This document shows, piece by piece, positions 5,003-34,859 of a stretch of DNA of 64,000 bases. The stretch spans positions 4,992,001 through 5,056,000 of the forward strand of contig OY761556.1 of NCBI GenBank assembly GCA_963664705.1, written 5' to 3'. The stretch's first letter is position 1. Each line of letters begins with the position of its first letter. The DNA comes from Acidobacteriota bacterium (lineage in GTDB: Bacteria; Acidobacteriota; UBA6911). Below the pieces are notes generated by a model. The model was given only the letters and a program-made list of their open reading frames with translations. It was not told the origin of the DNA and made no database searches. Both the position numbers and the translations under genes were made by a program.

Positions 5003-6103
5003 TTATCGCCGTCTATTGGCAAAATGCCTTGAATCGCCCCATTCGCCGTAGGCAATCGTGTCTCCCGCCATAGCTATGCGGGATTCAAGGCACATTTTAC
5101 ATGCGTCGGCTTCTTCATCCAGGCATGGCTTATTTTCATACAGCAGATAATCTCTGCGATATTTCGTTGGCGTCAGATTGGGCATTATGACATTGGCACC
5201 CACCCGTAGCGCCTTTTCCCTTCCTATCGGATCGAGGGTTTGCATGGCCGTGGTTGCCGCAATGTTTATATCCTTCATCATGACGCGAAGGATCGCAATC
5301 ATCCTCAGCGACAACTGAAATCTCTCTGTTCCGGAGAGGAGCTCATTTCGATATTGATATAGCGGCGTGCCCTGGTGCTCGATATAGGGCCCCATCCCGA
5401 CCATATCCACATCCAGATCACGAAAGAAAATCAGATCATCTGCAAGATCGGATATTTTCTGAAAAGGCAAACCGATCATCACTCCAGTGCCCACCTGGTA
5501 ACCGACTTTCTTCAGCGCCGCTAGTGCATCCAGTCGTGATTGGTATCTATGGTTATCGTCGGAGGGATGAAGCCTGCGATACAGCTCCGGATTCGAGACT
5601 TCAATCCGCAAAAGATATCTGTGGGCGCCGGCATCCAGCCAGCGCTGATACGTCTCAAGCGTCTGCTCTCCCAACGAAAGCGTAACGTGCAGCTCATTCC
5701 GAACCATTCGCTGAATGGATCGGATCAGATTCTCGATTCGGGAAATGAATCCAGGGTCCTTGCGTTCGCCTGATTGTATGACAATGGAAGCAAAGCCGTT
5801 CTCCGAGGCATACCTTGCTGCCTGCAGGACTTCCTCATCTGTCATTTCATACCGCGCATTGTCCGGATTCCCGGCGCGGATACCGCAATAAAAACAGTTC
5901 TTTGCGCAATAGCTGGAATATTCAATGAGCCCGCAAAAAAAGACTTTATTGCCTACATAGCGCGCCTTGGTCTCCGAGGCTCTCTGGTAGATTGGGAAGG
6001 CATGATCCTCTCCGGCAGAAAGCAACATAACAATATCTTCTTTGGTAAGAAGATCCTTCTCAAGAATGTCCTTTATTTCCTTAAGCATGGGGAATTGTCG
6101 CAT
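5003..6103 (-). CDS. hydE: HydE-like radical SAM enzyme ([FeFe]-hydrogenase maturase family)
   Basis: CAKNCFYC, LSLGE, RYLLRIE, GTGVMIGLP, GMGPYI, GANVIMPN, YLLYENK and C-terminal Cx7Cx2C; start uncertain (6088-6145). Confidence 0.85.
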   Translation of the reverse strand: MRQFPMLKEIKDILEKDLLTKEDIVMLLSAGEDHAFPIYQRASETKARYVGNKVFFCGLIEYSSYCAKNCFYCGIRAGNPDNARYEMTDEEVLQAARYASENGFASIVIQSGERKDPGFISRIENLIRSIQRMVRNELHVTLSLGEQTLETYQRWLDAGAHRYLLRIEVSNPELYRRLHPSDDNHRYQSRLDALAALKKVGYQVGTGVMIGLPFQKISDLADDLIFFRDLDVDMVGMGPYIEHQGTPLYQYRNELLSGTERFQLSLRMIAILRVMMKDINIAATTAMQTLDPIGREKALRVGANVIMPNLTPTKYRRDYLLYENKPCLDEEADACKMCLESRIAMAGDTIAYGEWGDSRHFANRRR

Positions 6104-6175
6104 GGAAGTGAGTTCGCGTGAAGAGCGGCCGGCAGGAAACTTCAAACTGGATTGACCTGGCGGACCGCGTAAAGG

Positions 6176-6358
6176 CTATGAACGCTTGTCGAATCGAAAG
6201 CGCTCCTTCCGTTCAATCTGCACGACCTTTGAGTCGTGTACTGTAATTTCGACAGACCCATATCGAAGACCCTTTATGGCCTGCAGTATTTTCCGTTCCA
6301 CATTTCGATCGGACTCACCGGGAATCAGCGCCTCCATACGAGTTATTTCATCGGGCAT
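6176..6358 (-). CDS. YezD/DUF2292 (OscA-like) small protein
   Basis: AIKGLRYGSVEITVHDSKVVQIERKERFRF signature; AGGAGG RBS. Confidence 0.9.
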   Translation of the reverse strand: MPDEITRMEALIPGESDRNVERKILQAIKGLRYGSVEITVHDSKVVQIERKERFRFDKRS

Positions 6359-6467
6359 TTTTGCCTCCTATCTGTGATTCGCAAAACTGCAGGCCCAGAC
6401 AGAATGGGAAATCACCTATCTGCCTAGACCCCATATGTATCGAAGAAAACGCTAAGCTCGGTTTACG

Positions 6468-7763
6468 CTATTCCTGAGATACCCGCAGTGCCTGATGGAA
6501 ATCCTCGCGAATGTCCTCAATGTCCTCGATCCCCACGGAAACGCGGATATACTCCGGGGTGACACCGGTTTCGATCTGCTCTTTGTCGGTCAACTGTGAA
6601 TGTGTGGTCGAGGCAGGGTGAATCACGAGAGTTTTGGCATCTCCCACATTGGCCAGGTGGCTTGCCAGGGTGACATTATTAATAAATTTGACACCGGCTT
6701 GCTGTCCGCCACGAATCCCAAATCCCAGAATTGCGCCTGGACCTTGAGGCAGATAATGCTGAGCCAGCGAGTGATGTTTATGGTTTTCAAGACCGGGATA
6801 ATTGACCCAAACAACCGACGGCTGCTTCTGAAGCCATTGCGCTAATGCAAGCGCGTTCTGAGCATGGCGCTCCATTCGCAGAGGCAAGGTCTCGAGTCCA
6901 AGCAGGAAGAGAAATGCGGCAAAAGGACTCATGCAGCTGCCCGTATCGCGAAGCCAGTTAGTTCGAGCGTGAATGATGTAAGCAAGATTTCCAAGAGGCT
7001 TGAGTGCTTCGGTGAAAATGGCACCGTGATAAGCCTCATTCGGCTGGGTAAATTCAGGCCATTTCCTGGGATTGTTCTCCCAGAAGAACTTGCCACTATC
7101 CACGATAGCCCCTCCAATGTGGACACCATGGCCGCCGATAAACTTTGTGGTCGAATAGACGACAATATCGATGCCGTGCTCAATGGGACGAAGCAAGGCC
7201 GGAGTAACCGTGTTGTCCAGAACCACCGGAAGGCCGTGCTTATGCGCAATATCTGAAATCTTTTTAAAATCAGGCACGTCATTTTTCGGATTACCAATGG
7301 ACTCCAGATAGACAAGCCGCGTTTGGTCATCAACAAGTTTGGAGATTTGTTCCGGATGGTCCGGGTCAAAAAAGCGAACCTCAATACCAAGCTTCTTCAA
7401 AGTCTGGGTGAAAAGTGTCCATGTGCCTCCATATAGGCTTGTGGATGAAATATAGTTCTGGCCTGAATGGGTGATCGTCAAGATCGCGGCAGTAATCGCC
7501 GCCTGCCCACTGGAAAAAGCCAATGCCCCGATGCCTCCCTCAAGCGCCGCTAGTCTTTTTTCAAGAACGTCGTTGGTCGGATTCATGAGTCGTGAATAGA
7601 TATTGCCGAACTCACGTAATGCAAATAAATTCGCCGCATGATCCGTGTCTTTGAAAACATAGCTGCTGGTTGCATATATAGGCACGGCACGGGCTGTAGT
7701 CGTGGGATCGGGCTCTTGTCCCGCATGCAACGCGAGGGTACTCAGTCGATAATTAGCGCTCAT
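6468..7763 (-). CDS. metY: O-acetylhomoserine/O-acetylserine sulfhydrylase (PLP)
   Basis: [33 protein letters not shown] lysine, [20 protein letters not shown]. Confidence 0.95.
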
Positions 7764-7825
7764 TATTCGTCCCCTTTCAGTTCGTCTGATTTGAACTTTT
7801 GATAGATAGCTGCTGCGAATTCTCA

Positions 7826-7866
7826 ATAAAAAACAAAAAGCCCGTCGAATTTGTCTCGAAGGGCTT
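7826..7866 (-). terminator. Intrinsic terminator (attenuator) in the metY leader
   Basis: Minus strand AAGCCCTTCGA-GACAAAT-TCGACGGGCTT followed by TTTGTTTTTT, about 60 nt before the metY start. Confidence 0.85.
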
Positions 7867-7897
7867 CGTCCGGCTTTGGGATTATTGAATTCCCTGA

Positions 7898-8005
7898 TTA
7901 TGGGAAAGTGCTGCTATGCGCCCCTCCGCAATATCCTGCCGGCGTTGCCGTTTGGTGTGATAGACAACAACAGGTCAGAGTTATTTGGAAAATTGCCTTC
8001 TGCAT
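7898..8005 (-). CDS. Poly-cysteine leader peptide 2 (35 aa)
   Basis: [35 protein letters not shown]; AAAAGGG RBS-like sequence; ends just upstream of the terminator. Confidence 0.75.
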
Positions 8006-8182
8006 CAGGATCAACCCTTTCAACAGCAATACTTTGCTACGATTGTCGCCAGCGCTCCGGCCGCAATGCGATTCAGTCACTAAGGTGCGTTCAAAACGGT
8101 TTATGTGATTATGTTATCGATGGAGGAGGTTTGGCCGACCGGCGAATTTTATTGGAATAGCGCTGCTTGGTCCACGCCGCTA

Positions 8183-8251
8183 TTACGCCGTCGGCGTGCT
8201 ACAACAGCAGGGAAAAATCAAAGGCAGTTCTTCTAAGCATCCCAAATTCAT
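8183..8251 (-). CDS. Poly-cysteine leader peptide 1 (22 aa), probably leaderless
   Basis: MNLGCLEELPLIFPCCCSTPTA; the ATG A is the 7th nt after the -10 hexamer. Confidence 0.7.
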   Translation of the reverse strand: MNLGCLEELPLIFPCCCSTPTA

Positions 8252-8257
8252 GCATAC

Positions 8258-8293
8258 AAAATACGTACATATATCTACTTTGTCAATAGATTT
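8258..8293 (-). promoter_or_regulatory. Sigma70 promoter of the metY operon overlapped by a putative Rrf2 box
   Basis: TTGACA (8286-8281), 17 nt, TATTTT; palindrome TCTAC-N7-ATAGA at 8274-8290. Confidence 0.75.
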
Positions 8294-8365
8294 TATATAT
8301 TATATTAAAAGACCAGGAATCGCGGCTTTTGGGTAACTTCTTTTCAGAGGAAAGTCGGAGTGCGT

Positions 8366-8827
8366 CTAAATTTGATACATCAATACGCTTTTTCTTTCCT
8401 GCGCGGCCCGATCGGACCGGGCCAGCGCTTCGGCCAACGTTGTCCCGTCCAGAATATTTGAAATGGCATCACGAACATCTTTCATAACAATTCGTATCGC
8501 ACAGCTATGCTCATCCCGACATTCGGGGCATCTGGAATAGGCACTTTGGCTCACGCAGGGAACCGGGGCTAGCGGACCGTCAATTGTCCGCACAATCTGC
8601 CCTATTGTTATTTCCTCCGGTGATCTATTCAGGTAATAGCCTCCGCCCTTCCCTATTTTGCTTTCCAAGATTCCTTGATTCTTCAACTCGCGTAAGATCT
8701 GCTCCAGAAATTTTTTGGGAATGTTTTCTCTTTCGGCCAGTTCAGAAATCAGGACAAGCTTCTTGCTTGATTCACGGGCTAAAGCCAAAACAGCCAAAAG
8801 TCCATACTTCGCTTTCATTGACAACAT
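8366..8827 (-). CDS. Rrf2 family transcriptional regulator (CymR/IscR-like)
   Basis: KAKYGL, IPKKFLEQIL, GKGGGYYL, DGPLAPVPC and Cys cluster CVSQSAYSRCPECRDEHSC. Confidence 0.95.
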   Translation of the reverse strand: MLSMKAKYGLLAVLALARESSKKLVLISELAERENIPKKFLEQILRELKNQGILESKIGKGGGYYLNRSPEEITIGQIVRTIDGPLAPVPCVSQSAYSRCPECRDEHSCAIRIVMKDVRDAISNILDGTTLAEALARSDRAAQERKSVLMYQI

Positions 8828-8840
8828 ATATCCCTCATTC

Positions 8841-8865
8841 TGGATAGGAAAAGTAGATCATTATA
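8841..8865 (-). promoter_or_regulatory. Degenerate Rrf2 box and -10 element of the regulator gene
   Basis: Minus strand TATAAT followed by TCTAC-N7-ATCCA. Confidence 0.45.
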
Positions 8866-8909
8866 AAAGCACATCCCAGCCAAACCATCAATGGCCGTCA
8901 AAATTACTC

Positions 8910-8943
8910 TTGACAACTTATAATCTATTATTTATATAGATAT
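8910..8943 (+). promoter_or_regulatory. Sigma70 promoter with putative Rrf2 box for the tlpA-like/tRNA-Cys unit
   Basis: TTGACA at 8910, 17 nt, TATATA; TCTAT-N7-ATAGA at 8924-8940. Confidence 0.7.
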
Positions 8944-8962
8944 TGTATTTATTTTGTGATTC

Positions 8963-9042
8963 TTCAGATTAAACCAGAAATCTGGGCTGAGAGAATCTCC
9001 TCTTGATTGTGCCGACCGACCGGAATCCCGGAAGTCCGCAAT
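8963..9042 (+). ncRNA. Putative cis-regulatory tandem-hairpin leader RNA, copy A
   Basis: GATTAAACCAGAAATCTGG and GACCGGAATCCCGGAAGTCCGCAAT; matches the copy at 20422-20502 (minus). Confidence 0.6.
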
Positions 9043-9059
9043 TGACAGGGATAGATCCC

Positions 9060-9164
9060 ATGAAGTTATTGCGGCGCATTGAAATGTCACAAACTCTGCT
9101 GTACTTGAATTCCTCATCATATCTTCCTTGTTTAATACCCTGTTGTCGCTGTCCCCAGTTCTAG
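9060..9164 (+). CDS. Cysteine-rich leader peptide 3 (34 aa)
   Basis: MKLLRRIEMSQTLLYLNSSSYLPCLIPCCRCPQF; AGGGA RBS. Confidence 0.7.
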   Translation: MKLLRRIEMSQTLLYLNSSSYLPCLIPCCRCPQF

Positions 9165-9297
9165 ATCCCAATTTTGCGCTGAGCCTCGAGCATTCAAATA
9201 GCTGGCATCCCCAATAAGTAAATTCATCAGGACCCAAATTGGAGCCTGAAAATAAAAGATTCGTTTTGTTCTCAAAACAAAGAGAGGAAGTGTCATT

Positions 9298-10518
9298 GTG
9301 AAGAAAATGTTGATGGTCCTATCGGTTTTATATTTGTTTTCCAGCCTGTCATGGGCGCAGTCTCTGACAGGTGTGTGGGATGCAACGATCAATTTCAACG
9401 GAACCATCATACCGTTCAAGCTTGAATTAGCGGGAGAAGGTTCAAAGGTCACAGGATCGTTTCTCAATGGAACCGAACGTAATACCTCGACAAGTGGCAA
9501 GTTCGAGCAGGAATCTCTGCTGCTTCGGTTCGACGACTACGGAGCGATTCTGGATGCAACGCTGAATGATACCGTCCTGGAAGGACAGTACGGTCCTTTT
9601 CAAAAAAAATTCTATTCGATTCAAGCCAGGAAGCATGCGGACTTCGCTGCGCCAAATTCCGAAGCGCCTGCGATTGGAGGCCTTTGGGAAATAGCCGGCA
9701 TCTCTGGCGCATTTGATGAAAATGCATGGCACTTAATAGTGCGCCAGTCGAATTCCTCCGTGTCTGCTGTCATTGTCCGCGCGGAGGGCGATACCGGTGA
9801 AATTGCCGGTATCTATAAAGATGGGAAGTTTACTCTTGGCCATTTCTCCGGAGCGAGGCCATCCCTTCTTGTTCTTACTCCAAAAAACGATGGGACCTTA
9901 TCTGTGCGGCTTTCTGATTTGCTTGGAAGCAGGCAATTCACAGCCTTCCGAGCGAACGAGGCGCAAGCCAGGAATTGGCCCAACTCCATCTATCCGACAC
10001 AGCCGGTACTCAATGGAAAACCCGAGTCTTTTCAGTTCCGCTTCCCGGACCTGAGCGGACGACTCATTTCCAGCTCGGATCCTCGTTTTCGTAAAAAGGT
10101 GCTCCTTGTAAATGTCTCCGGAAGCTGGAGTCCCAATTGCCATGACCAGGCACCTTTTCTTACTGATCTATACCGACGGTTTCGAAACCAGGGCTTTGAA
10201 ATCGTATCTCTGACATTTGAGGAAGCGGATCAACTTAAAGATGCATCCCGCCTGCGTGCGTTTGTCAAAAAGTTTGGAATCGAATATCCGGTGCTAATTG
10301 CAGGTGCTCCAGAAGAACGAACCGCAAAGTTACAAGCGCAGGCATCCGGCTCATCCTGGCCAACAACGCTCCTGATCGGCCGCGATGGCTTAATCCGTTC
10401 AATTCAAACCGGCTTTCCCAGCCCTGCCAGTGGCGATTTTTATGAGAAGGCAAAGGGCCAGGTCACAGCGCAGGTAGAACAGCTTCTTGCCGAAGGATCT
10501 GAATTGACCAGGAAATAG
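9298..10518 (+). CDS. Exported TlpA-like thioredoxin-fold protein with SxxC active site
   Basis: Signal peptide; C-terminal FPDLSG..KKVLLVNVSGSWSPNCHD..YPVL..WPTTLLIGRDG. Confidence 0.85.
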   Translation: MKKMLMVLSVLYLFSSLSWAQSLTGVWDATINFNGTIIPFKLELAGEGSKVTGSFLNGTERNTSTSGKFEQESLLLRFDDYGAILDATLNDTVLEGQYGPFQKKFYSIQARKHADFAAPNSEAPAIGGLWEIAGISGAFDENAWHLIVRQSNSSVSAVIVRAEGDTGEIAGIYKDGKFTLGHFSGARPSLLVLTPKNDGTLSVRLSDLLGSRQFTAFRANEAQARNWPNSIYPTQPVLNGKPESFQFRFPDLSGRLISSSDPRFRKKVLLVNVSGSWSPNCHDQAPFLTDLYRRFRNQGFEIVSLTFEEADQLKDASRLRAFVKKFGIEYPVLIAGAPEERTAKLQAQASGSSWPTTLLIGRDGLIRSIQTGFPSPASGDFYEKAKGQVTAQVEQLLAEGSELTRK

Positions 10519-10531
10519 GCTGTCAGAACGA

Positions 10532-10608
10532 GGCGCCGTACCCAAAATGGAAAGGGGAGGGTCTGCAAAACCTTAATTTTAGCGGTTCGACTCCGCTCGG
10601 CGCCTCCA
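10532..10608 (+). tRNA. tRNA-Cys (GCA)
   Basis: Acceptor GGCGCCG/CGGCGCC, anticodon loop CTGCAAA, T arm AGCGG-TTCGACT-CCGCT, U discriminator, encoded CCA. Confidence 0.93.
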
Positions 10609-10627
10609 TGCTTTGAAATGAGGACAT

Positions 10628-11050
10628 ATGAAAGTAATACTATCTTTACTGTTGCTCTGTCTATTTAGCGCCTCCTGCGCTCCCAAGCGAATTCAAACCG
10701 GCAAAGTGATCGGTCCATACGCGCCAGCAATCAAAGCCGGAAAAACGCTATATATTTCCGGACAGATTGCTCTTAAACCCGGGACAACGGATTTGGTAAA
10801 CACCAACTTTGAGACAGAAGTAGTCCAGGTGCTGGAGAACCTTGTCGCCTTATTGAGGACAGCAGGGTACAAAACCTCCGACCTTGTCCAATGTACTATC
10901 TACCTTAAAGATATAAATGACTATGCAGAAGTGAATCGGATATACGGCAGCTATTTTGAAAAGGGGCGCACACCAACGCGAACCACCATCGCCGTTTCCA
11001 ATTTGCCGCGCAACGCTCGAATTGAAATTTCAGCAATCGCCTATAAATAA
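10628..11050 (+). CDS. RidA/YjgF family protein with lipoprotein signal
   Basis: IGPYAPA, LYISGQI, P.RT, LPRNARIEISAIA; N-terminal MKVILSLLLLCLFSASC lipobox. Confidence 0.88.
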   Translation: MKVILSLLLLCLFSASCAPKRIQTGKVIGPYAPAIKAGKTLYISGQIALKPGTTDLVNTNFETEVVQVLENLVALLRTAGYKTSDLVQCTIYLKDINDYAEVNRIYGSYFEKGRTPTRTTIAVSNLPRNARIEISAIAYK

Positions 11051-11066
11051 AGTGGGAGAATACGTA

Positions 11067-11414
11067 ATGGCAAGCAATCCGTTACAGACTCAGGAATCGT
11101 ATCCCAGACCCATCAAAATTATTATGGTTGGGGGCCATAAGCGGAGTATGCGCAGACTGGCGGACCGCTGCCGGCAAGAAGGATGGCGAGTGGAAAATCA
11201 CTCTGGAGAAACCTATGGCCGCTGTGGTGAAGAGCTCCGATCTCAAATCGGGCGTTCCGATATTGTGGCAATAACAACGAGAGTGAATAGTCACGGTGGC
11301 ATGTTTATAGCCAAAGCCCTGGCACGCCGCCTTGGTCGAACATTTATAGTCATTCGCCGCGATAATTTTGAGGAACTCAAAGCGGCCGTGGTCGATACCG
11401 AGCGCAGATCTTAG
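11067..11414 (+). CDS. DUF2325-family protein
   Basis: IIMVGG...SDIVAITTRVNSH...AKALARR pattern. Confidence 0.65.
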   Translation: MASNPLQTQESYPRPIKIIMVGGHKRSMRRLADRCRQEGWRVENHSGETYGRCGEELRSQIGRSDIVAITTRVNSHGGMFIAKALARRLGRTFIVIRRDNFEELKAAVVDTERRS

Positions 11415-11464
11415 TCTCAAACACGCGCCGGCTGAAGACCAAACCGCCGTCCGTCAGCGGTTCG

Positions 11465-12157
11465 TTATGCGGTAAGTGCGGCTTTTGTTTGGCGCTCAAT
11501 AAGCGCGCGACGAAGGCGAAGAACGCTGTAAGAGCCAAAAAGTACCACATACATTATTATATTCACGATAACCGTGCCGGAACCGGCAGCAGCAGCCGGA
11601 GCCAAAAACAGGGCCAGATGAACAAAAATGAGAAGGAAGAACAGGTAGGCCAGAGTCTGCACTCGTTTCCAGCGCGCCGGCTCCATTAACCTGCGCACAG
11701 CCCCAAACGAAGTCCCCGTAAGAACGGCAAGTATCAAAGCAGTCACAAACGAAACAGTAATTGAGAGCGCTTTATTTTTATCCAGCCTGCCTTCGCCGGC
11801 CAGAAGCAGCGGGATATAGGTATTCGCATATACAATAATGTGACCAACCGCAAGAAGGGATCCGATTATGGCAAGTTGGCGACGCAAGGGATATAGAACA
11901 GTGCGCGGCCGCGAGCCTTTGGGGAAGACACCCGCAAACATCACCAGGGCAAATAATGATAATGCAATCGCACACCGCTGGATGATAATCATCAGCCAGG
12001 AAAACCTAAAAATGGAATCGTCCACATAGTTCGCAAAGAGATATAGTCCGGTCAGGAAAATCGTCAGCACATAAAACCAAGCCGGCCGCTTCTTAAGGTG
12101 TTTGTGCAGAATAAAAACCATGGCAGTTGTTATAAGCAATGTAAGCGCAAATGTCAT
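11465..12157 (-). CDS. Ferric-reductase-like/MsrQ-type heme b membrane protein
   Basis: About 7 TM segments; LRRQLAI, GH, LTGTS, WKRVQTLAY..L..VH motifs; AAAGGAGG RBS. Confidence 0.8.
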   Translation of the reverse strand: MTFALTLLITTAMVFILHKHLKKRPAWFYVLTIFLTGLYLFANYVDDSIFRFSWLMIIIQRCAIALSLFALVMFAGVFPKGSRPRTVLYPLRRQLAIIGSLLAVGHIIVYANTYIPLLLAGEGRLDKNKALSITVSFVTALILAVLTGTSFGAVRRLMEPARWKRVQTLAYLFFLLIFVHLALFLAPAAAAGSGTVIVNIIMYVVLFGSYSVLRLRRALIERQTKAALTA

Positions 12158-12168
12158 GCAACCTCCTT

Positions 12169-13488
12169 TTACGCACCGGCAGCAGCAGCGCTTGGAGCAG
12201 CCAGTCTGCTCAAGGCACCCAGCAGCCTCGTAATCTCGCCAGGCGTGTTGTAAAAATGCGTCGATACACGCAGTCCTGATACGCCACCCTGATTTGTGGA
12301 ACGGATAATGACCTGTTCTTGCTTTTGCAGCGCCCTGACAAGCTGATCCGGCGGGAGGTTTCCGATACTGAATGTAGTAATCCCGGCACCAAATTGTGGA
12401 TCCTCGGAAGTCCACAGCCGGGTCGCTGGAATCTTCTTTAATCCCCGGCGCAGTTGTGCAGATAACTGCTGCGCCCGCGCTGCAATGCGCTCCTTACCGA
12501 TCATTAGCTGAAGATCTACCGCCGCACTGATGCCACAAAGTGCGGGTATGTTCAGTTGCCCGCTTTTTTCAAATCGAGCCGCGCCTGCTTTTGTTTTTGC
12601 CATAACTCTGTCCTGACCGTTATTCGGATCGTAGTAGCCGAAAAGCGGTTCCACTCTGTCCTGCAGTTCTCTCTTAATGTAGGTAAAACCCGTTCCCGTT
12701 CCCGCAAGCAGCCATTTCTGACCGGGGCTGGCATAATGGTCGACCCCGCTCAAATGAAAATCGAGAGGCACAACTCCGGTCGATTGCGCTCCATCCACGG
12801 AAATCAGAATTCCCTTGCTGTGAGCTAGTTCAGCTAACTCTTTTATCGGCATCAATAACCCGGTTACATACGTGACATGGCTTATAACAATCAACCTGGT
12901 TTTTGATGTGATCTTCTTTTCATACGCAGCGAGGATTTCATCGATCGAATTTGGCAGCGCCGGTTCCTCCGCTCGTATGATTCGTATACCCTTCTGCTTT
13001 TCCAGCGCCTGGTATGCCTCAACAGGTCCAAAGTGTTCCCATGCACCGATAACAACCTCGTCTCCGGGCTGCCAGTGGAGTCCCTTGGCAAAGATATTCA
13101 TTCCTTCCGTCGTGCTGTGTGTTAGGGCGATTTCATCCGCATCCGCTCCCGTGAATTCGGCAATGCGTTTGCGTACGCCTGAGAGTTCCTCTTGTCTGAA
13201 GCTGTTGGTCGGGTCCGCGGCGAGTTCTTCATCATACCGTCTGTGCACTGCCAATACGGTATTGGGCGCAGGTCCCAGCGTTCCATTGTTCAGGAAAACA
13301 AGTTTGCTGTAGAGGCTGAATCCCTCGCGTATCTTCTCCCAATAAGCCTCATCGGGCCTATCAACCGATACTTTTGTCTCGTGCACCGGTTCCGGCGAGG
13401 AAATGGTTTGGGCAACCGCGCTGCCTGCAATCGCAGCGGCGGTGCCGGTAAGAAACAAGCGTCTGGAAAGCTGATATTCAGATCTCAT
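12169..13488 (-). CDS. Tat-exported class V PLP enzyme (cysteine desulfurase/C-S lyase/isopenicillin epimerase-like)
   Basis: SRRLFL Tat motif, FLNNGTLGP, STTEG, VDGAQS, PGQKWL, LRVSTHFYN. Confidence 0.88.
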   Translation of the reverse strand: MRSEYQLSRRLFLTGTAAAIAGSAVAQTISSPEPVHETKVSVDRPDEAYWEKIREGFSLYSKLVFLNNGTLGPAPNTVLAVHRRYDEELAADPTNSFRQEELSGVRKRIAEFTGADADEIALTHSTTEGMNIFAKGLHWQPGDEVVIGAWEHFGPVEAYQALEKQKGIRIIRAEEPALPNSIDEILAAYEKKITSKTRLIVISHVTYVTGLLMPIKELAELAHSKGILISVDGAQSTGVVPLDFHLSGVDHYASPGQKWLLAGTGTGFTYIKRELQDRVEPLFGYYDPNNGQDRVMAKTKAGAARFEKSGQLNIPALCGISAAVDLQLMIGKERIAARAQQLSAQLRRGLKKIPATRLWTSEDPQFGAGITTFSIGNLPPDQLVRALQKQEQVIIRSTNQGGVSGLRVSTHFYNTPGEITRLLGALSRLAAPSAAAAGA

Positions 13489-13513
13489 AATGACCTTTAG
13501 AAAGGGAAAAGGC

Positions 13514-14068
13514 TCAAGGTAAAAACACTTTTATGTACTTATCCACATCGGTATCGGCGAATGACTTGACGAGCACAGCAGATGGCTCAGTCCTGCCATT
13601 CAGTTTCCGATCAGACGACCATTGCTGAGTATCGATAACCTCGATTGCCTCTCCAGGGCATGTGGTTGCACATGCTGGCAATTTGTTTTTGGCAAGACGA
13701 TCAATACACAGATGGCATTTCTGCATTTTCCCGTTTTTGCCGTACTTCGGAATTTCATATGGGCATGCCTTCAGGCAACTCCGGCAACCGATGCATTTGG
13801 CGGCGTCCACCGTGACAATTCCGTTCTCTGCATGTTTTGTTATTGCACCTGCCGGACAGATCCCGGCGCAAGCCGGCTTCGCACAATGCAGACAGGAATG
13901 CGGCAGCGAAATATTGATGACCCGCGTCGGAGTTTCCTCCCAATGGACCAGGACTTTGCGCCACATCACACCGGCTTCCACGGAATTTGCAGCCTTGCAG
14001 GCCACTTCGCAGGCGGAGCATTGTACGCAACGTCCCAAATGAAGCCGAAAACCTAATTGTTTCGCCAT
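13514..14068 (-). CDS. DmsB-like 4x[4Fe-4S] electron-transfer subunit
   Basis: CVQCSACEVAC, CLHCAKPACAGICP, CIGCRSCLKACP, KCHLC..PACATTCP. Confidence 0.93.
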   Translation of the reverse strand: MAKQLGFRLHLGRCVQCSACEVACKAANSVEAGVMWRKVLVHWEETPTRVINISLPHSCLHCAKPACAGICPAGAITKHAENGIVTVDAAKCIGCRSCLKACPYEIPKYGKNGKMQKCHLCIDRLAKNKLPACATTCPGEAIEVIDTQQWSSDRKLNGRTEPSAVLVKSFADTDVDKYIKVFLP

Positions 14069-14102
14069 GTCTTATCCTTTCACCCGTCAAAACATTGCTT
14101 CT

Positions 14103-16538
14103 TCACACCTGCTGCAGTGGCTGTTTCCGCACCTGGACCAGCGTCTGGCTCGACATGGCGGTCACAATCGGATCAAATGCCCTGGCGCTTGTGTCATACA
14201 TGGAGTTTGTATTCGCACCGCCATTGAGTACTGAAAGGTTAGGCTTACCCAGCGCGTCACATCCCTCCCACCATCCGTGCAGTGCCATCACGGTATCTCT
14301 GCGGATGCCAGGATTAACATCCGCTTTCAGGCGAATGGTGCCATGCGGCGACTCGACAACCACCCAGTCCCCATGTCTTATGCCGCGAGCCTGCGCCGTT
14401 TCGGGATGTATCTGCAGGGTTGGATCGGGCGCCACTTCCCGCAGGTGTGGAAGATTGCGCAACCATGAAGCGTTATAAACTTTGGACGTATGGAAATCGG
14501 AAAAAAGCAGAGGGTACTTGTTCAGCAGTTCCGGCGTAGCGGTCAGACTTTCGGGCGGTTCGCGCCATTCCGGCAGCGGGTTGAACCCGGCTTCTTCAAA
14601 TGTCGTGTTATAGATCGCCACCTTTTGCTGCGGCAGATAGGGCGCCTTGGAAAACCTGGAACTGCGCGCAGAAAAAGCCTGCTCGTATTTTTCGTAGACC
14701 GGCTGCCGGGCATTTTGACGAACTATCCCCTCGGGCTTCCTGAGCAGCTCTTCCAGGGTAATGCCATGCCCTTTCAGTTCCTCACGCTTCCACTCTTCAA
14801 CGCTGCCATGCCAGAAATGCTTGCCGTACCCCATCCGCGCTCCCAGCTCAATCCAGAACTCGTAATCGGACTTGGATTCACCTATTGGCTCAATAACCCT
14901 ACGGCGCGGCATGATCCAATTACCGCGCCCTTCGAATGGATGATCCACCTCGTACATGGTGGAAATTGGAATGACGATATCCGCATAATTCATGTCTGCG
15001 GTGCGAGCCACATCGAGGACTACATAGAAATCCACCTTCTTTAGCGCTTCCAAAACGGTCCTCGTGCCACGAGTGCTCGTTACAGGCTGCGTGCCGGGCG
15101 CGATAATTGTGCGAATCGGATAAGGTTTGCCTGTGAGCACGCTTTCGAAAATCCGGTAATATGCGGAAGTGGGACTATTGCTTGTCTGAAAGGGGAGCGG
15201 AAACTCAGGGGCAACAAGTCTGTTGACCTGTTCCTGAGTATACACGAGGCTGTCCCGAGACTCACCCGGGCCCGGTCTCCCACTCTGCTTGGACTTTGGA
15301 GCCGGAGCGCCGGGACCGCCGAGTCCTGCAAAGCGGCGAGGCCCATCGGGAGATCCGGAATTGCCGGACCTCCCGATTCCGGGACTTCCAAGCCCTTCCA
15401 TTCCTCCGGGACCAGCACTTAGGAGATTTCCACCTCGACGATCCAGATTTCCGGTTATTGCAATCAGAATCGCGACAGATCGCACGGCATCATTGCAGCT
15501 CGGAGAGTGTTCAAAACCGTTGCCGGTCTCAATGCAGGCGTGCTTGGTTGTGGCAAAGAGCCGGGCAACTTCGCGCGTCTGCGCTGCCGGCACGCCGGAA
15601 ATCCTCTCCGCCCACTCCGGTGTATATTTCTGAACGTGCGGAACAAGTCGGTCAAACCCATAGGTCCACTTTCCGACGAACTCTCTGTCGTAAAGTTTTT
15701 CGGTGATCACAACATTCAGCAGAGCCAGAGCGAACGCCGCATCGGTTCCCGGGCGAATAGGAACCCAGATATCCGCAAGAGCCGCATCCGGCTCCATAGT
15801 TGGTTTGACTGCAATGATCTTTACACCGCGCGCCTTCGCTGCCAACAATTCACGAACTCCCCCCTTGGCGCTCCCTGCGTAGATTGGCTGCTTCGCCCAG
15901 ATGATCAACAACCTGGTATTCTGAATATCAGCGGTTGGCGAACTCCCAAGCGTATACTGAAAAGAAAAGCCCTTTTGCATGGCGCAAATTCCGCTGTGCG
16001 CATAATTTGGGCTGCCGTGCGCGGCGAGAAATCGTCGAAAATAGGAGCTATACGATCGCGCAGCCGGGGAGAGTATCGCAAGCGACTCCGGCCCAAATTG
16101 CTCCTTCTGTTCCTTCAGTTTTGATGCAATCGTATCGAGCGCTTCATTCCAGGTGATACGCTTGAACTTGCCTTCGCCCCGTTCTCCAACCCTCTTCAGC
16201 GGATAACGCAATCGCTGGGGTGAGTAGACCCACTGCGGTGCAGCATGCGCCTTCCCGCAATTTTTGCCCCGATTCAGCGGAGCATCCTTCAGCGGTTCAA
16301 TCCCAACAAAACGTCCATTGCGCACAACAGCGTTGATGCCGCATCCCTGGCTGGGGCCGCACATCGCACACATGGTCGGGACAAGCTTTTCCGCTGCTGC
16401 GGAAACCAAAGGCGTTGTCTCGGCCGCATGAAGCAGTGCCAACGGTTCAACTGTGCTCCAGAGGGCCGATTGAACACATATCGCGCCTGCCGCTCTCAAA
16501 ACCTCGCGCCGGGTTATTTCACTATCCTTAGATTTCAT
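14103..16538 (-). CDS. Tat-exported Mo/W-bisPGD oxidoreductase catalytic subunit
   Basis: TRREVL Tat motif, CAMCGPSQGC..CGK cluster motif, RLRYPLKRVGERGEGKF, IRPGTDAA, HSGIC likely Cys ligand, C-terminal molydop-binding domain. Confidence 0.92.
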   Translation of the reverse strand: MKSKDSEITRREVLRAAGAICVQSALWSTVEPLALLHAAETTPLVSAAAEKLVPTMCAMCGPSQGCGINAVVRNGRFVGIEPLKDAPLNRGKNCGKAHAAPQWVYSPQRLRYPLKRVGERGEGKFKRITWNEALDTIASKLKEQKEQFGPESLAILSPAARSYSSYFRRFLAAHGSPNYAHSGICAMQKGFSFQYTLGSSPTADIQNTRLLIIWAKQPIYAGSAKGGVRELLAAKARGVKIIAVKPTMEPDAALADIWVPIRPGTDAAFALALLNVVITEKLYDREFVGKWTYGFDRLVPHVQKYTPEWAERISGVPAAQTREVARLFATTKHACIETGNGFEHSPSCNDAVRSVAILIAITGNLDRRGGNLLSAGPGGMEGLGSPGIGRSGNSGSPDGPRRFAGLGGPGAPAPKSKQSGRPGPGESRDSLVYTQEQVNRLVAPEFPLPFQTSNSPTSAYYRIFESVLTGKPYPIRTIIAPGTQPVTSTRGTRTVLEALKKVDFYVVLDVARTADMNYADIVIPISTMYEVDHPFEGRGNWIMPRRRVIEPIGESKSDYEFWIELGARMGYGKHFWHGSVEEWKREELKGHGITLEELLRKPEGIVRQNARQPVYEKYEQAFSARSSRFSKAPYLPQQKVAIYNTTFEEAGFNPLPEWREPPESLTATPELLNKYPLLFSDFHTSKVYNASWLRNLPHLREVAPDPTLQIHPETAQARGIRHGDWVVVESPHGTIRLKADVNPGIRRDTVMALHGWWEGCDALGKPNLSVLNGGANTNSMYDTSARAFDPIVTAMSSQTLVQVRKQPLQQV

Positions 16539-16573
16539 TTTCGAATTTCCTCTGTAGCGACGCACGGATTTTT

Positions 16574-16600
16574 CGGATCATCTCCAATGGAGATGATCCG
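16574..16600. other. Perfect 12-bp intercistronic stem-loop
   Basis: CGGATCATCTCC-AAT-GGAGATGATCCG; no U-tract on the sense strand, so more likely an mRNA-stabilising hairpin. Confidence 0.6.
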
Positions 16601-16622
16601 GGGACATTTCAGAATTCGTCTC

Positions 16623-19600
16623 TTAGAAACTGAGCCGCGCTCCCAACTGAATCTGGCGGGGATTATTGGTTGTCCCACTGATCTTGCCGAAGTTAGAGCT
16701 GGCGCGATCAACATTCGGTTGTGAGAAAATCGGTGTGTTCGTGAAGTTGAAGAACTCGGCGCGGAATTGAGCCTTCACTCGCTCATGGAGGGTCACCGTC
16801 TTGAAGAGGGAGACATCCAGATTAACCTTGCCATGCGTGCGCAGGTCGGCATAAGTACGCGTTCCGTTGCCGAAGGCGTATGCAGCCACGGTGGTGAACG
16901 CATTGGGATTGATCCATCCGTCATACCGTTGAGACGGGCTGCCAGAGGTAGTCAGTGGAACTCCCGCAACAAGATTGGCCCGCTGATAACCGGTGGTATT
17001 GTTTCGGTTGGTCTGTATAACCTCCAATGGATATCCAGACTGCGTCGAGCCAACGATGTTCAGCGACCATCCGCCGGCCAGCAGATCGAGTGCATTGGAG
17101 CTGCTCGCCCAGCGCTTGCCGCGTCCAAAAGGTAAATCGTAGGAGATTGAAGTGCTGATCCGATGCGGCTGATCCTGGGTGGAACGGCTCCATTCATCCG
17201 CAGGATTATAGGCATTCTGCGGTCCGTTCGTTGTTGAATTGACTTGCCGGTTGCCTTGCACCCAGGCAAGTCCGACGATGTTGTCGTAGTTTTGAGACAG
17301 AGTGTAGGAGGCAAGCAATGCCAGTCCGCTCTTGAATCGTTTCTGTCCCCGGAGATAAAAGGCAAGGTAACGTGAACTGGCCGTATCTGAAGCAGACAGA
17401 TTCACGCGAAGATACTGGGGGTACGGCAACAACAACTGATAGTATGGAATATTTGCCTGTCCCAGCGACGAGCTGCGCGGGACAATGCCATAGAATGGAT
17501 TAGACACCTGGCGATCCAAAACCGCTGAGCCTAGAGAGAAGTAGGAAGGGTCAAGCTGGTTGATGTTGCGATTATCCTGTGTCAGATGCAGCGAGTGCGA
17601 ACCGATGAGACCGGCGGCAAATACCATCCCGCCAAAAGCTTCCCGCTGGAAATCGAGTGAATACTGCTGCACATAACCGCCGGACCGCGTTTTAGGATCC
17701 AGGATATTGATATTTTGTCCCCATGCAGCTGTCTGGGATTTGTCCGCCGGTTGAATTAAGCCGTTCGGATATGGATTAGCCAGGGTTGTGACTCCATCGG
17801 GCAAGCCTTTGATGGCGCCTTCAGCGCTTACAGACGTAACCGCGGTGGTGCCTGCGGGCGCCATCGCTGCTATCTCGAGAGACCATGGGGCCCAGAAAAT
17901 GCCGTAGCCTCCGCGAAGGGCTGTCTTGTCGTTAAAGGCATACGCGAAACCGAAGCGAGGCCCCGGTTTGAGTGTATGGGGATTGGAAGTACGTGTTGGA
18001 TTGTTGTTCTCTCCCGCAAACTGCAAGACACCGCGGACCTGGCGTCCGAGCGCGTTGCTGACCGAAGCACTGATCGGGTTTATCGCATTACTGTCCAAAC
18101 CTACATATATATTGTTATGGTCTTCCGACACACCCGTTTCATGCTCGAAACGCAACCCTAAATTCAGGGTCAGTTTTGGGGTAATGCGAAAATCATCCTG
18201 CACAAAGAACCCATAATAATTGACGGAATCGATAACACGCTTGGATGCAGTATACGGGCCGCTATCGGGAAGTCCGAGCAGGAGGCTTGCCAGCCCGCTG
18301 CCGGTATTCGCGTCATTCGTATTGTATGGGTCGGCGTTGGTAAACAGCGTGGAGAAACCCAGGTTCAGAGCTCCGCCGCCAGGAATGCCGCTGATGCCCA
18401 GAACACGGAAGTCGAATCCCCCTTTCAGGCTATGCCTCCCAAAGAGCTTTGATATCGAGGCATTGAAATTGCGCGTGTAATAAACCGCTTCCGAGGTGTT
18501 GCCGCCGCCGAAACCGGTGTAACCGGCAACCGTAATGCCGGGAAATGCGGGCCGGGCCAAACTGCTTGCCAGCGCCTGCGGAAATCCAAGTTGAGTGATG
18601 TCATACCCTTGATTTTTCGCCGGGTATGACAAATCCCAGAGACGGTTGTATCCCCAACGGATGGCGATGACCGTCGATGGGTTGGGCGTGAGCTGCGCAT
18701 TCGCGGAGGTGGCATCGACCTTCCGTTCCGTGCTGGAACCGCGCGTGGCGATGCGGGTAATCGGATTGTCTGCAGTGCTCCAGGGATATGTGTGGTTTTC
18801 CTGCGTCCCTTGATAAACATACGACGCGGCGGCTTTAAGCCAGGGGGTGAACTGGTGATCGAGTTTTCCGGTATATTGCGCACCATGGTGCGGAGTGCCC
18901 GCGAGTCCAACGTAATTGGGAGTAGAGGAATTGTTGTACCCCTTCCGGGTTGCATTTTCATCCGGATAAATGTTGGCTAGCCTTTGTCCGAGCGCACTGA
19001 TGCGATTGGTGGGAATAGTATTGTTGGGAAATGGGTCACGCATAACCTTCCCGGTCACAGGATCGAGGCGCGTGGTCAGCGGATCGTAAATGATATGTAG
19101 CGTGCCATTCGCATTAAACGTCTGCGAAAAATTACCAGCCCGCTCCAACGCAGTCGGTACAAGATCGGCAACGCTTCCGGAATTTCCTTTTGTATAGCGC
19201 TCCGTAGAGAAGAAGAAAAAGGTCCGATTATGGCCATCGTAAATCTTTGGGATAAGAACCGGGCCGCCAAACGATCCGGCATAAGTGCGCTCATCCGTGT
19301 TCGGCTTTGCCGTTCCATTGCGGTTATTTTCAAACCGGTTGGCCGCCCAGCCGGTTTCGCGATCGTAAAAGACAAGACTTCCGTGCACCCTGTTTTCGCC
19401 GGAACGCAACGAGACATTATATGTACCGCCGCCCGTGCGCCCCACTTCAGCATCATAGGTATTGGCCTGCACTTTCAGATCCTGCGTCGTTTCTGGCGAT
19501 GGAAGAATCAAAACGCGATTGGTGAGATCGGCAAACGAAATGCCGTCGACCAGGAAGTTGTTTCGACGCACGGGACCGCCTGCGATCGATACCTGCGAGG

Positions 19601-20132
19601 TGCTATAGTGGTCATGCATTCGGATGGATTGTTCCCCGCCGGTCCACACAACAGTTGCGGCGAGTCTCGCGGTTAAATAGATATTGCGTCCCAGGTTGGG
19701 CAGATCCACGATTTTTTGATTGTCCAACAGCTGACCGATTGAAGCGTCCGCAATCTGAATCTGCTGCGTTTCCGAGCTCACCGTAACTACTTCGCTGATC
19801 TCGCCAATGTCCAACACCAGATCCAGTGTTACGTTCGCCTGGGTAGAAACAATCACGCCGCGGCGTTCCAGGTGTTTGAAACCCGAGGCCTCAACACTAA
19901 CCGTATAGGTAGCGGGGATAACCGCCGAAAAAACATACTCTCCCTGTTCATTGGTGGCTGTGGTACGGCGTACCTGGGTATTCTCATTAACCAGAGTTAT
20001 CTTGGCTCCTTCCGCTACAGCTCCTGCCGGATCCACCACTCTGCCTCTCAACGATCCTTGAAATGACTGAGACCAGGCAAATGTTGATAATAGGAAAAAT
20101 GAAATTATGATCCTTACAAAGATGCTTCTCAT
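16623..20132 (-). CDS. TonB-dependent receptor with carboxypeptidase regulatory-like N-domain
   Basis: Signal peptide MRSIFVR, LPNLGRN, FFVQDDFR, C-terminal PRQIQLGARLSF; AAGGGGA RBS. Confidence 0.92.
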   Translation of the reverse strand: MRSIFVRIIISFFLLSTFAWSQSFQGSLRGRVVDPAGAVAEGAKITLVNENTQVRRTTATNEQGEYVFSAVIPATYTVSVEASGFKHLERRGVIVSTQANVTLDLVLDIGEISEVVTVSSETQQIQIADASIGQLLDNQKIVDLPNLGRNIYLTARLAATVVWTGGEQSIRMHDHYSTSQVSIAGGPVRRNNFLVDGISFADLTNRVLILPSPETTQDLKVQANTYDAEVGRTGGGTYNVSLRSGENRVHGSLVFYDRETGWAANRFENNRNGTAKPNTDERTYAGSFGGPVLIPKIYDGHNRTFFFFSTERYTKGNSGSVADLVPTALERAGNFSQTFNANGTLHIIYDPLTTRLDPVTGKVMRDPFPNNTIPTNRISALGQRLANIYPDENATRKGYNNSSTPNYVGLAGTPHHGAQYTGKLDHQFTPWLKAAASYVYQGTQENHTYPWSTADNPITRIATRGSSTERKVDATSANAQLTPNPSTVIAIRWGYNRLWDLSYPAKNQGYDITQLGFPQALASSLARPAFPGITVAGYTGFGGGNTSEAVYYTRNFNASISKLFGRHSLKGGFDFRVLGISGIPGGGALNLGFSTLFTNADPYNTNDANTGSGLASLLLGLPDSGPYTASKRVIDSVNYYGFFVQDDFRITPKLTLNLGLRFEHETGVSEDHNNIYVGLDSNAINPISASVSNALGRQVRGVLQFAGENNNPTRTSNPHTLKPGPRFGFAYAFNDKTALRGGYGIFWAPWSLEIAAMAPAGTTAVTSVSAEGAIKGLPDGVTTLANPYPNGLIQPADKSQTAAWGQNINILDPKTRSGGYVQQYSLDFQREAFGGMVFAAGLIGSHSLHLTQDNRNINQLDPSYFSLGSAVLDRQVSNPFYGIVPRSSSLGQANIPYYQLLLPYPQYLRVNLSASDTASSRYLAFYLRGQKRFKSGLALLASYTLSQNYDNIVGLAWVQGNRQVNSTTNGPQNAYNPADEWSRSTQDQPHRISTSISYDLPFGRGKRWASSSNALDLLAGGWSLNIVGSTQSGYPLEVIQTNRNNTTGYQRANLVAGVPLTTSGSPSQRYDGWINPNAFTTVAAYAFGNGTRTYADLRTHGKVNLDVSLFKTVTLHERVKAQFRAEFFNFTNTPIFSQPNVDRASSNFGKISGTTNNPRQIQLGARLSF

Positions 20133-20323
20133 GCTTAATCCCCTTTGCGCGAAATGCTCGTGTCCGCTTTTCAGGACAGGAGTGATCGATAACCCGGCCC
20201 GCAATCATTCATGGAGAGACAATCTTGAATGAAGGACCGGCACCAATCACAAACTGCCGTCGGCGCGAATTTTGATGTTTTGTTCCAAACGCATGCGAAA
20301 AACGAATGTGGAATCGCTTAGGA

Positions 20324-20407
20324 TCAACAACAACAGCGCTGGGATTTCAAATCTTTGGGGAACTGAAAGAAGAATTGGTGAGTCTTGTAAATTCTGAGGG
20401 TTCTCAT
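20324..20407 (-). CDS. Poly-cysteine leader peptide 4 (27 aa)
   Basis: MRTLRIYKTHQFFFQFPKDLKSQRCCC-stop (TGT TGT TGT TGA); GGA RBS. Confidence 0.72.
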   Translation of the reverse strand: MRTLRIYKTHQFFFQFPKDLKSQRCCC

Positions 20408-20421
20408 GTCAATCGTCCGTG

Positions 20422-20502
20422 ATTGCTGACTTCCGGAGTTCCGGTCAGCCCGCGGATTTATTCACAGCAAGCTCCTGGGACCAGATATCTGGTTAATCCC
20501 CA
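20422..20502 (-). ncRNA. Putative cis-regulatory tandem-hairpin leader RNA, copy B
   Basis: Minus strand GATTAACCAGATATCTGG and GACCGGAACTCCGGAAGTCAGCAAT. Confidence 0.6.
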
Positions 20503-20519
20503 ACAGAACTAATATAATT

Positions 20520-20556
20520 TCTATGGATATAATATACATTTATCGGAGGCTTTCAA
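20520..20556 (-). promoter_or_regulatory. Sigma70 promoter with putative Rrf2 box for the TonB receptor operon
   Basis: Minus strand TTGAAA, 16 nt, TATTAT; TCTAT-N7-ATATA at 20520-20536 (one mismatch to the box). Confidence 0.6.
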
Positions 20557-34504: not shown

Positions 34505-34541
34505 AGCTGAGCCAAGCTCCAGAAAAGAATGTGTATCAGAG

Positions 34542-34859
34542 TCAGGCAGCAGGAAGTTCAAGTACCTGGTAGACTCCATCTTTGAATGCGATCAGATCTC
34601 GCGTCAGGAGTTCATCACGGGCGCCGGTAAGTTCGTGGCGGTGATGAATCTCGAGGAGTTCCGCCATACGTTCGTCGGAATAAAAACTCACACCATCCCG
34701 ATTAGCAACAGCGACCAAGATTAAGTAGAGAAGCTTTTCCAATCGGGTTAGTCCCTGATCGAAACCCTGCCGAAAAAAACGATGGTCAATCCAACTGAAA
34801 GAACCGCGGATGGTGCGGATTCGATCCGGCTGTAGTGGTTGAGGTCGTTTGTTCATCAT
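34542..34859 (-). CDS. Small wHTH-like mobile-element protein
   Basis: SFSWIDHR..LLYLILVAVANRDGVSFYSD motif, of a type seen beside IS21/recombinase elements. Confidence 0.7.
   Translation of the reverse strand: MMNKRPQPLQPDRIRTIRGSFSWIDHRFFRQGFDQGLTRLEKLLYLILVAVANRDGVSFYSDERMAELLEIHHRHELTGARDELLTRDLIAFKDGVYQVLELPAA

Follow-up and report, generated by a model that had tools for sequence, protein, structure and literature searches.

ANTAR dual hairpins, BglG/LicT RAT sites and HutP are protein-bound RNA switches, and an ANTAR-type system pairs two hairpins with six-base loops with an ANTAR-domain protein. In mycobacteria, leaderless polycysteine short open reading frames (ORFs) serve as attenuators before sulfur operons and make up the "Cys ribulon" (Canestrari et al., 10.1101/834739). 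Actinobacterial cys leader peptides, possibly Rho-dependent, have also been predicted (PMC1262725), and uORFC-8-2 stands before cysS in Rhodobacterales (PMC8632094). In Bacillus subtilis, the Rrf2-family regulator CymR senses cysteine via a complex with CysK (a title cited in PMC9218516), while oscA of Pseudomonas corrugata is co-transcribed with a sulfate-binding protein gene and tied to sulfur starvation (Viti et al. 2009, cited in PMC3596284). Here we describe a sulfur-related island of an Acidobacteriota bacterium (contig OY761556.1) that combines an Rrf2-type DNA box, a small RNA hairpin linked to the DUF2292 gene yezD/oscA, and leader ORFs with clustered cysteine codons (Cys ORFs). The island lies at positions 5003–20556 of the 64,000-nucleotide (nt) stretch analysed, hereafter the window; its 6.9-Mb genome is labelled G000, other G labels denoting genomes and L labels fetched loci.

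The island consists of three divergent or convergent units (A, B and C) arranged around the rrf2 gene. Its regulatory features, by strand, are the following (aa, amino acids).

8366–8827, minus strand: Rrf2-family regulator, with C91, C100, C103 and C109 invariant (profile matches)
6176–6358, minus strand: yezD/oscA (DUF2292), 60 aa, unit A; PF10055, E 1e-18
8258–8290, minus strand: promoter A, TTGACA-17-TATTTT, overlapped by an Rrf2 box at 8274–8290
8183–8251, minus strand: leader ORF A1, MNLG..FPCCCSTPTA, 22 aa, Cys codons at 8201–8209
8122–8195, minus strand: conserved stem pairing 8187–8195 with 8134–8143, right after the A1 Cys codons, in the window, G002 and G013
7898–8005, minus strand: leader ORF A2, MQKA..TCCCLSH.., 35 aa, Cys codons at 7964–7972
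7828–7866, minus strand: intrinsic-terminator-like hairpin and U tract, read from the sequence; folds with a probability (P) of about 1
8910–8940, plus strand: promoter B, TTGACA-17-TATATA, overlapped by a box at 8924–8940 that is common to the divergent rrf2 start region
8973–8985, plus strand: degenerate upstream hairpin of leader B, 5.4 bits
9009–9042, plus strand: DUF2292-linked hairpin B, core 9018–9034, 25.4 bits, second in the genome
9060–9164, plus strand: leader ORF B, MKLL..CLIPCCRCPQF, 34 aa; C-rich, C/G 2.0
20520–20556, minus strand: promoter C, TTGAAA-16-TATTAT, overlapped by a box at 20520–20536 with one mismatch
20481–20493, minus strand: degenerate upstream hairpin of leader C, placed by element-by-element alignment of the leaders
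20422–20455, minus strand: DUF2292-linked hairpin C, core 20430–20446, 29.1 bits, top in the genome
20324–20407, minus strand: leader ORF C, MRTL..QRCCC-stop, 27 aa, Cys codons at 20327–20335; C-rich, C/G 1.8

An initial annotation, made from the letters alone, had described a three-layer regulon, with a box and Cys ORF in every unit and a shared RNA motif in two leaders. The four Cys ORFs are indeed in the sequence at the places it gave, and units B and C carry all three layers; the metY unit, A, is without the RNA motif.

The near-identical RNA motif that it had noticed in two leaders occurs in its exact form twice in the genome, both times here (B and C), and not at all in 29 genus genomes. 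The upstream copies that would make the hairpins of both leaders tandem are degenerate, and that of C was not among the hits of the hairpin model. With Rfam 15, a tRNA is the only match in the window at gathering score; the leaders gave no match at E values up to 5, a single chance match falling outside them, and eight yezD loci returned no family for the hairpin. A variant found behind yezD in L060 led to a scan of the phylum for yezD and a motif behind it. Among 80 named GTDB loci carrying yezD/oscA (Nitrospiraceae, Binatia, uncultured deltaproteobacteria, Gammaproteobacteria including Pseudomonas, Acidobacteria and a Truepera), the hairpin follows the gene in 71, spanning several phyla, against a background of 0.02 per 270 nt. 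A looser rule finds it in 73 loci, with two copies in 26, and in 21 of these 26 the copies are 44–62 nt apart.

We aligned 93 of the 98 unique instances, leaving out four that lie inside the next gene and one doubtful copy. The 93 sequences share an outer and an inner stem of four pairs each, separated by a 3x2 internal loop and closed by a loop of four bases. Two-sided changes occur in seven of the eight pairs, and covariation reaches 0.396 versus 0.205 (0 of 500 shuffles; slid controls all lower), counts that are inflated by relatedness and, for the inner stem, by pairing having been a selection criterion. Two outer-stem pairs, which stood outside selection, are formed in 81 of 98 instances versus 52.5 expected and in 74 of 98 versus 54.9 expected. 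A model built without the window copies ranks hairpins C and B first and second in the genome. A held-out Bacillota copy, which follows yezD on a plasmid of Niallia, scores 25 bits, and the model found no hairpin at two other plasmid yezD loci, of Paenibacillus and Novosphingobium. In the Niallia locus (L238:2680-2760) the 3' strand of the hairpin overlaps a terminator-like stem, a transcriptional rather than a translational platform; the rrf2-like reading frame upstream of yezD appears broken there.

The gene yezD itself is sparse, occurring in 8 of 301 phylum genomes and in 2 of 30 genus genomes, one of the latter being G013; the Bacillus subtilis control genome also carries it. Five of the seven other phylum carriers have a hairpin about 50–200 nt behind yezD, G099 has no scoring copy and none was seen in G320. 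The DNA downstream of the window yezD likewise holds no copy. A single-hairpin model proved too unspecific for a co-occurrence test, matching 42 of the 151 phylum genomes searched at E 0.01, and we make no claim that genomes without yezD lack the hairpin. Of 24 matches inspected in other phylum genomes (15 of them from this search), most fall across long reading frames and have the look of chance. Outside yezD loci, credible hairpins were seen in the window genome and G013 only, both of which carry the gene. One of these (L414, G013:C3:10854) follows directly on a promoter, before an apparent 4Fe-4S membrane protein gene. Each of two hairpin units about 1 kb apart in G455:C3 (L354 and L359) has the gene of an exported protein 27 nt downstream and, upstream, a variant hairpin whose loop has five bases.

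The initial annotation had overlooked a probable partner for its RNA motif, YezD/OscA, encoded within the metY operon. From these genomic associations YezD/OscA is the candidate binder of the hairpin. Its 60 residues are predicted to fold as a helix plus a β-hairpin; fold searches gave nothing at E 0.001 (best Z 3.4), which says nothing either way. The adjacent protein matches DUF2292 only, with no ANTAR, PRD or HutP domain. The arrangement resembles ANTAR, RAT and HutP systems in having a small, often tandem hairpin set against a terminator or a Shine–Dalgarno (SD)-masking helix, next to a candidate regulator gene; it differs in its four-base loop, its 3x2 internal loop, the absence of an Rfam match and a protein with none of their domains. 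An alternative that we consider improbable is that the hairpin is a small-ligand aptamer or the site of another protein, with yezD merely a co-regulated gene or a translated leader. Guanidine-II is also built of paired hairpins, and the frequent tandem arrangement at 44–62 nt would suit such a reading, as would the purely genomic nature of the association and the lack of a detected structural match between YezD and a known RNA-binding fold. Telling against it, the credible copies off yezD keep to yezD genomes, other inspected matches being mostly chance-like, and the unit would be very small for an aptamer.

The position of the hairpin suggests an effect on translation initiation. It lies 20–36 nt before the start codon in 46 loci, a set chosen because the main gene follows and from which Pseudomonas was left out. 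Pairing between the hairpin and the first codons amounts to −13.3 kcal/mol in these loci, versus −8.4 for shuffled sequence and −9.0 farther downstream, and in folding a helix masking the SD and AUG beats the hairpin in 46 of 46. The hairpin of these loci thus reads, in the folding models, as a default-off switch that would be opened by something stabilising the hairpin.

The second RNA-level layer, the Cys ORFs, was assessed by a census of 2,536 leaders of at least 150 nt in the window genome, called with a rough home-made gene caller. Leaders with an ORF containing CCC, CCxC or CxCC number 42 (1.7%) genome-wide, as compared with three of three in the island. For other two-codon residues, 20–111 such leaders exist, with Asn, Glu and Gln at 36–38. 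A Cys cluster alone is therefore not rare enough to be telling; its co-location in the island is. Outside the window, a CC or CxC ORF occurs in 17 of 72 yezD spacers (8 of the 80 loci were skipped), versus 4 antisense, 2.1 ± 1.4 in shuffled spacers and 0–7 for other residues. In a set of 80 metagenome loci carrying the window-type Rrf2 subfamily, four (L039, L041, L043 and L063) have Cys ORFs next to rrf2 and before receptors. ORFs resembling ORF B are found in L039, L041 and G013:C27, and those of L039 and L041 differ by synonymous changes. In G139, a box, a CC ORF, yezD and hairpins are united in one unit. Where homologues exist, they retain the start codon, reading frame and Cys run, with the remainder of the ORF diverging, and all of them precede sulfur or envelope genes.

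These patterns bear on two further alternatives. Very unlikely, in our judgement, is the view that the ORFs arose by chance or as by-products of UG-rich RNA structure, leaving only box and hairpin functional. It draws on the 42 leaders that pass the Cys filter, a number close to those for Asn, Glu or Gln, on the Pseudomonas ORFs that overlap a stem and on the lack of a computed switch; it fits poorly with three of three island leaders, the retained start, frame and Cys run, the synonymous changes, and the sulfur or envelope genes behind every homologue. Least probable of all the alternatives is that the peptides sense metals or redox state as arrest peptides like CutF/CruR. Several Cys ORFs do precede TonB-type receptors, as such peptides would. 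As read from the sequence, however, they are 22–38 aa long and have neither an export helix nor a proline arrest ending, the Cys run is what is kept, and Cys ORFs also stand before metY and cysK.

Unit A has Cys ORFs without the hairpin. No credible hairpin was found in the metY leader, where the best model score is 4.1 bits versus 25.4 for B, but two Cys ORFs are present. The AUG of A1 lies 7 nt after the −10 hexamer, and on this spacing A1 is likely leaderless. Its conserved stem is followed by a CCUCC anti-SD-like tract (8122–8129) and is known from three sequences only, with a core that shows no compensatory change. Among 30 loci inspected in a pattern search, only those in G002 and G013 proved true homologues of A1. 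The former stands before cysK; the latter precedes DUF2325, yezD, twin hairpins and the same molybdenum (Mo) operon as in unit C. No homologue of A2 was found in 50 family genomes. The terminator-like hairpin downstream escaped a simple scan, whose loop limit was 8 nt.

The Cys ORFs share with the Cys ribulon the presence, before sulfur operons, of 5' ORFs with two to three or more adjacent Cys codons, A1 being likely leaderless as well. That ribulon is presented as taking the place of a transcription factor (10.1101/834739), whereas the island ORFs lie under an Rrf2 box; B and C differ further in standing behind a conserved hairpin and having a led start. With the actinobacterial and Rhodobacterales leaders, the island shares a Cys run near the stop and pyrimidine-rich tracts without (B, C) or with (A) a terminator. 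Those leaders belong to other phyla and have a single layer, the passages describing them reporting no upstream protein-type RNA element.

Upstream of metY in genus g199 (L307, L308, L309, L311 and L312), we noted a short ORF with clustered Met codons and a MAMPM core, for example MSNMAMPMRGPSGLGGTLM. In five of five loci it is followed by a terminator-like stem and a U tract. The g199 leader is a candidate methionine-codon attenuator of metY, judging from this layout.

At the DNA level, the box TCTAY-N7-RTAGA had been proposed for all three units. It is strict in A (8274) and B (8924), which account for two of the six strict occurrences in the genome; C deviates by one mismatch, a level reached by 241 sites genome-wide. 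A matrix from 58 sites in 45 of the 80 Rrf2-homologue loci ranks boxes B, A and C first, second and third in the 6.9-Mb genome, a result that is partly circular, the training sites having been picked with the window consensus. With up to one mismatch, 65 boxes lie less than 200 nt from rrf2 homologues versus 3.0 ± 1.5 in 200 local shuffles. Boxes occur near rrf2 in 46 of the 80 loci, immediately upstream and immediately downstream of the gene, at a density of 2.19 versus 0.036 per kb farther off. The genes downstream, judging by motif, presumably for the most part encode Sbp, TauE, YezD, MetY, porins and receptors. In the window, the palindromic site covers the promoter of rrf2 itself and those of its presumed targets, and the boxes are very probably the operators of the island Rrf2. 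The sigma70 promoters that the boxes overlap are a weaker call: A and C are among three 10/12 matches, but B fails the scan rule and consensus matches overall are not above chance (12 found versus 14.8 expected). One more strict match (G000:4927610; L001:10340-10703) separates a LysR gene from a divergent operon for a molybdate-type binding protein, a radical S-adenosylmethionine (SAM) protein, a YeeE/YedE sulfur transporter and a cysteine desulfurase-like protein. It ranks 17th by matrix, may belong to another regulator and was left out of the regulon count.

The regulator was first taken to be of Rrf2/CymR type. Its Rrf2 domain is clear (PF02082, 130 bits; TIGR00738, 120 bits), but identity with CymR was rejected at 89.8 bits against an NCBIfam equivalog cut-off of 195, as was identity with IscR at 78.4 bits against 207.55; its neighbours are genes of sulfur uptake and assimilation. 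The four cysteines C91, C100, C103 and C109 are unchanged in 25 Rrf2 sequences and point to an iron–sulfur (Fe-S) or thiol sensor. As CymR and IscR are described (PMC11672702, PMC9218516), the regulator resembles them in its Rrf2 fold, a palindrome over the promoter, apparent autoregulation and sulfur targets. It departs from them in falling under both cut-offs and in its four-Cys loop, which is absent from the B. subtilis CymR structure 2y75. Close homologues occur in 17 of 401 phylum genomes; the best Rrf2 of G013 is only 40% identical.

The initial annotation held that repressor, RNA element and ribosome stalling act in series. Comparative evidence supports this in part, for each layer singly and through the hairpin-to-ORF spacing. 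In leaders B and C the hairpin lies 25 and 22 nt before the AUG of the Cys ORF, at distances of 2.8 and 14 kb from yezD. In G013:C27 a promoter and hairpin are again followed, after 22 nt, by an AUG and an ORF ending CCRCRRNRRC, then by a receptor 27% identical to that of the window; the hairpin stem is changed yet still paired, and yezD of G013 is on another contig. The three leaders align element by element, and their hairpin-to-ORF spacing supports serial wiring. The box layer is doubtful in G013:C27 because its half-sites are 9 nt apart, and the second G013 hairpin copy (C3) has no clustered Cys ORF. Most hairpins are without a Cys ORF, so the layers are modular rather than an obligate triad: most relatives use one or two of them.

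From these observations we derive our preferred model, whose central claim, that box, hairpin and Cys ORFs form a serial gate for sulfur shortage, we regard as evenly balanced. Shortage would release Rrf2, probably by loss of an Fe-S cluster from its four cysteines. In unit A, the two Cys ORFs and the terminator would then allow read-through under cysteine shortage, yielding MetY and YezD. YezD would act in trans on hairpins B and C and license the AUG of the leader ORF, so that the Cys sensor is itself switched on; given the observed position of the hairpins and the predicted binding, we lean slightly towards YezD in this role. A ribosome halted at the Cys codons would cover the C-rich tract, keeping transcription from ending prematurely. 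Leaders B and C are C-rich and have no terminator, and the genome has two genes with a Rho N-terminal domain, which makes Rho shielding our best guess there (compare PMC1262725), with Rho specifically as the terminating factor only a tentative assignment; a C/G ratio of 2 or more is found in 1.4% of upstream windows. In its output such a system would behave as an AND gate, with A feeding forward to B and C. That DUF2292 is an RNA-binding regulator of sulfur uptake in at least five phyla, here licensing a Cys-sensing ORF under an Fe-S-type Rrf2 in a three-input AND gate, is conceivable but, as a whole, less likely than not.

Several observations weigh against this serial model. Masked folding does not support a classical 2:3 antiterminator in the metY leader, the terminator folding with P about 1 in all four ribosome-masked states, and for stall-dependent SD opening it gave no clean change in A, B, C, G002 or G013; both are equilibrium tests, kinetic or Rho-based control being outside their reach. 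Hairpins B and C are already stable (P 0.998), so the default-off logic of the 46 loci is not reproduced in the window, and in those loci duplexes formed across loci are nearly as strong as a locus's own (−11.9 versus −13.3 kcal/mol). The hairpin is missing from 7–9 of the 80 yezD loci. The 17 spacer Cys ORFs fall into two clades, and the Pseudomonas one overlaps another conserved stem, with cysteines lost in several relatives. In only 1 of 17 phylum Rrf2 loci does the stretch from box to operon hold a convincing Cys ORF. Leaders of orthologous genes keep the Cys run for the A1, B and C types, but not at metY: the 23 genus loci L284–L306, as far as listed, have short leaders that carry a box-like site but hold no Cys ORF within the transcript, and in L037, the closest fetched Rrf2 relative (75%), metY follows after 56 nt with no leader. 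For metY, the outcome that the initial annotation had named as counting against it, orthologous leaders lacking conserved Cys runs, has thus in part come about. The island metY, however, is a second copy.

In a further reading, which we consider rather unlikely, box, hairpin and Cys ORFs are independent modules working in parallel or under different conditions, the hairpin having no control of leader-ORF translation. The 55 of 72 yezD hairpin spacers without a Cys ORF agree with it, as do the Nitrospiraceae CC ORFs, which lie upstream of the hairpins, the hairpin-free unit A and the lack of a strong competing helix for the window hairpins. Against it, the spacing of 22–25 nt from hairpin to AUG that is typical of main genes is seen again at the leader ORFs of three units from two species.

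Each layer resembles a known kind, and the system is partly new: neither the hairpin nor its gating of a Cys ORF is described in the literature searched. In that search, which took in few subscription papers, neither the hairpin nor the box nor their combination came up; the hairpin might be contained in a 50-genome RNA motif screen (PMC11109978) or in the motif screens of Weinberg. The searched file of the PMC8632094 supplement lacks the terms DUF2292, yezD and oscA. The passage on OscA, which belongs to the same DUF2292 family as YezD, gives no molecular function and does not mention a hairpin between oscA and sbp (PMC3596284). YezD/OscA, which is widespread but of unknown function and occurs in B. 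subtilis and pseudomonads, gains a specific candidate RNA target, and the four-cysteine Rrf2 subfamily, so far uncharacterised and associated with sulfur uptake, gains a probable operator. Cysteine-codon sensing would extend past actinobacteria and Rhodobacterales. If the serial wiring is true, a protein-bound RNA element would decide whether a leader ORF is translated, an unusual logic in which the attenuator itself needs to be switched on.

Profile matches bear out the initial gene calls in the island (metY, hydE, Rrf2, TlpA-like, RidA, Mo enzyme, TonB-type receptor, DUF2292/yezD and tRNA-Cys). The remaining genes are as follows.

5003–6145, minus strand: HydE-type radical SAM protein, unit A; TIGR03956, 338 bits against a cut-off of 254.6, start uncertain
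6468–7763, minus strand: metY, O-acetylhomoserine/O-acetylserine (OAH/OAS) sulfhydrylase, unit A; TIGR01326 above cut-off
9298–11414, plus strand: operon B, with an exported TlpA-like protein, tRNA-Cys(GCA) at 10532–10608, a RidA-family protein and DUF2325
16623–20132, minus strand: TonB-dependent-type outer-membrane receptor, gene 1 of operon C; PF25183, PF13620
11465–16538, minus strand: distal operon C, with a Mo-bisPGD (bis-pyranopterin guanine dinucleotide) enzyme, a DmsB-like Fe-S subunit, a class V pyridoxal phosphate (PLP) enzyme and a ferric-reductase-like membrane protein

The other metY copy, at G000:2471845, has the context typical of the genus. For the Mo-bisPGD enzyme, PhsA is the best match, with a score under its cut-off, and the four-gene set of distal operon C recurs in G013 behind yezD and twin hairpins. 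Three read runs showed no informative variant in the window leaders. In the TlpA-like protein (9298–10518), SPNC replaces CxxC, leaving one cysteine in all. DUF2325 accompanies the sulfur module both in G000 (11067–11414) and in G013 (L313:9639-10136). The metY operon includes hydE, and in G013 a [FeFe]-hydrogenase-like gene adjoins the orthologous Mo operon (L313:129-3614); with such neighbours, cysteine supply may be linked to cluster maturation. Elsewhere in the window, at 32325–34579, two adjacent tyrosine-recombinase-like ORFs, recognised by eye, suggest a mobile element.

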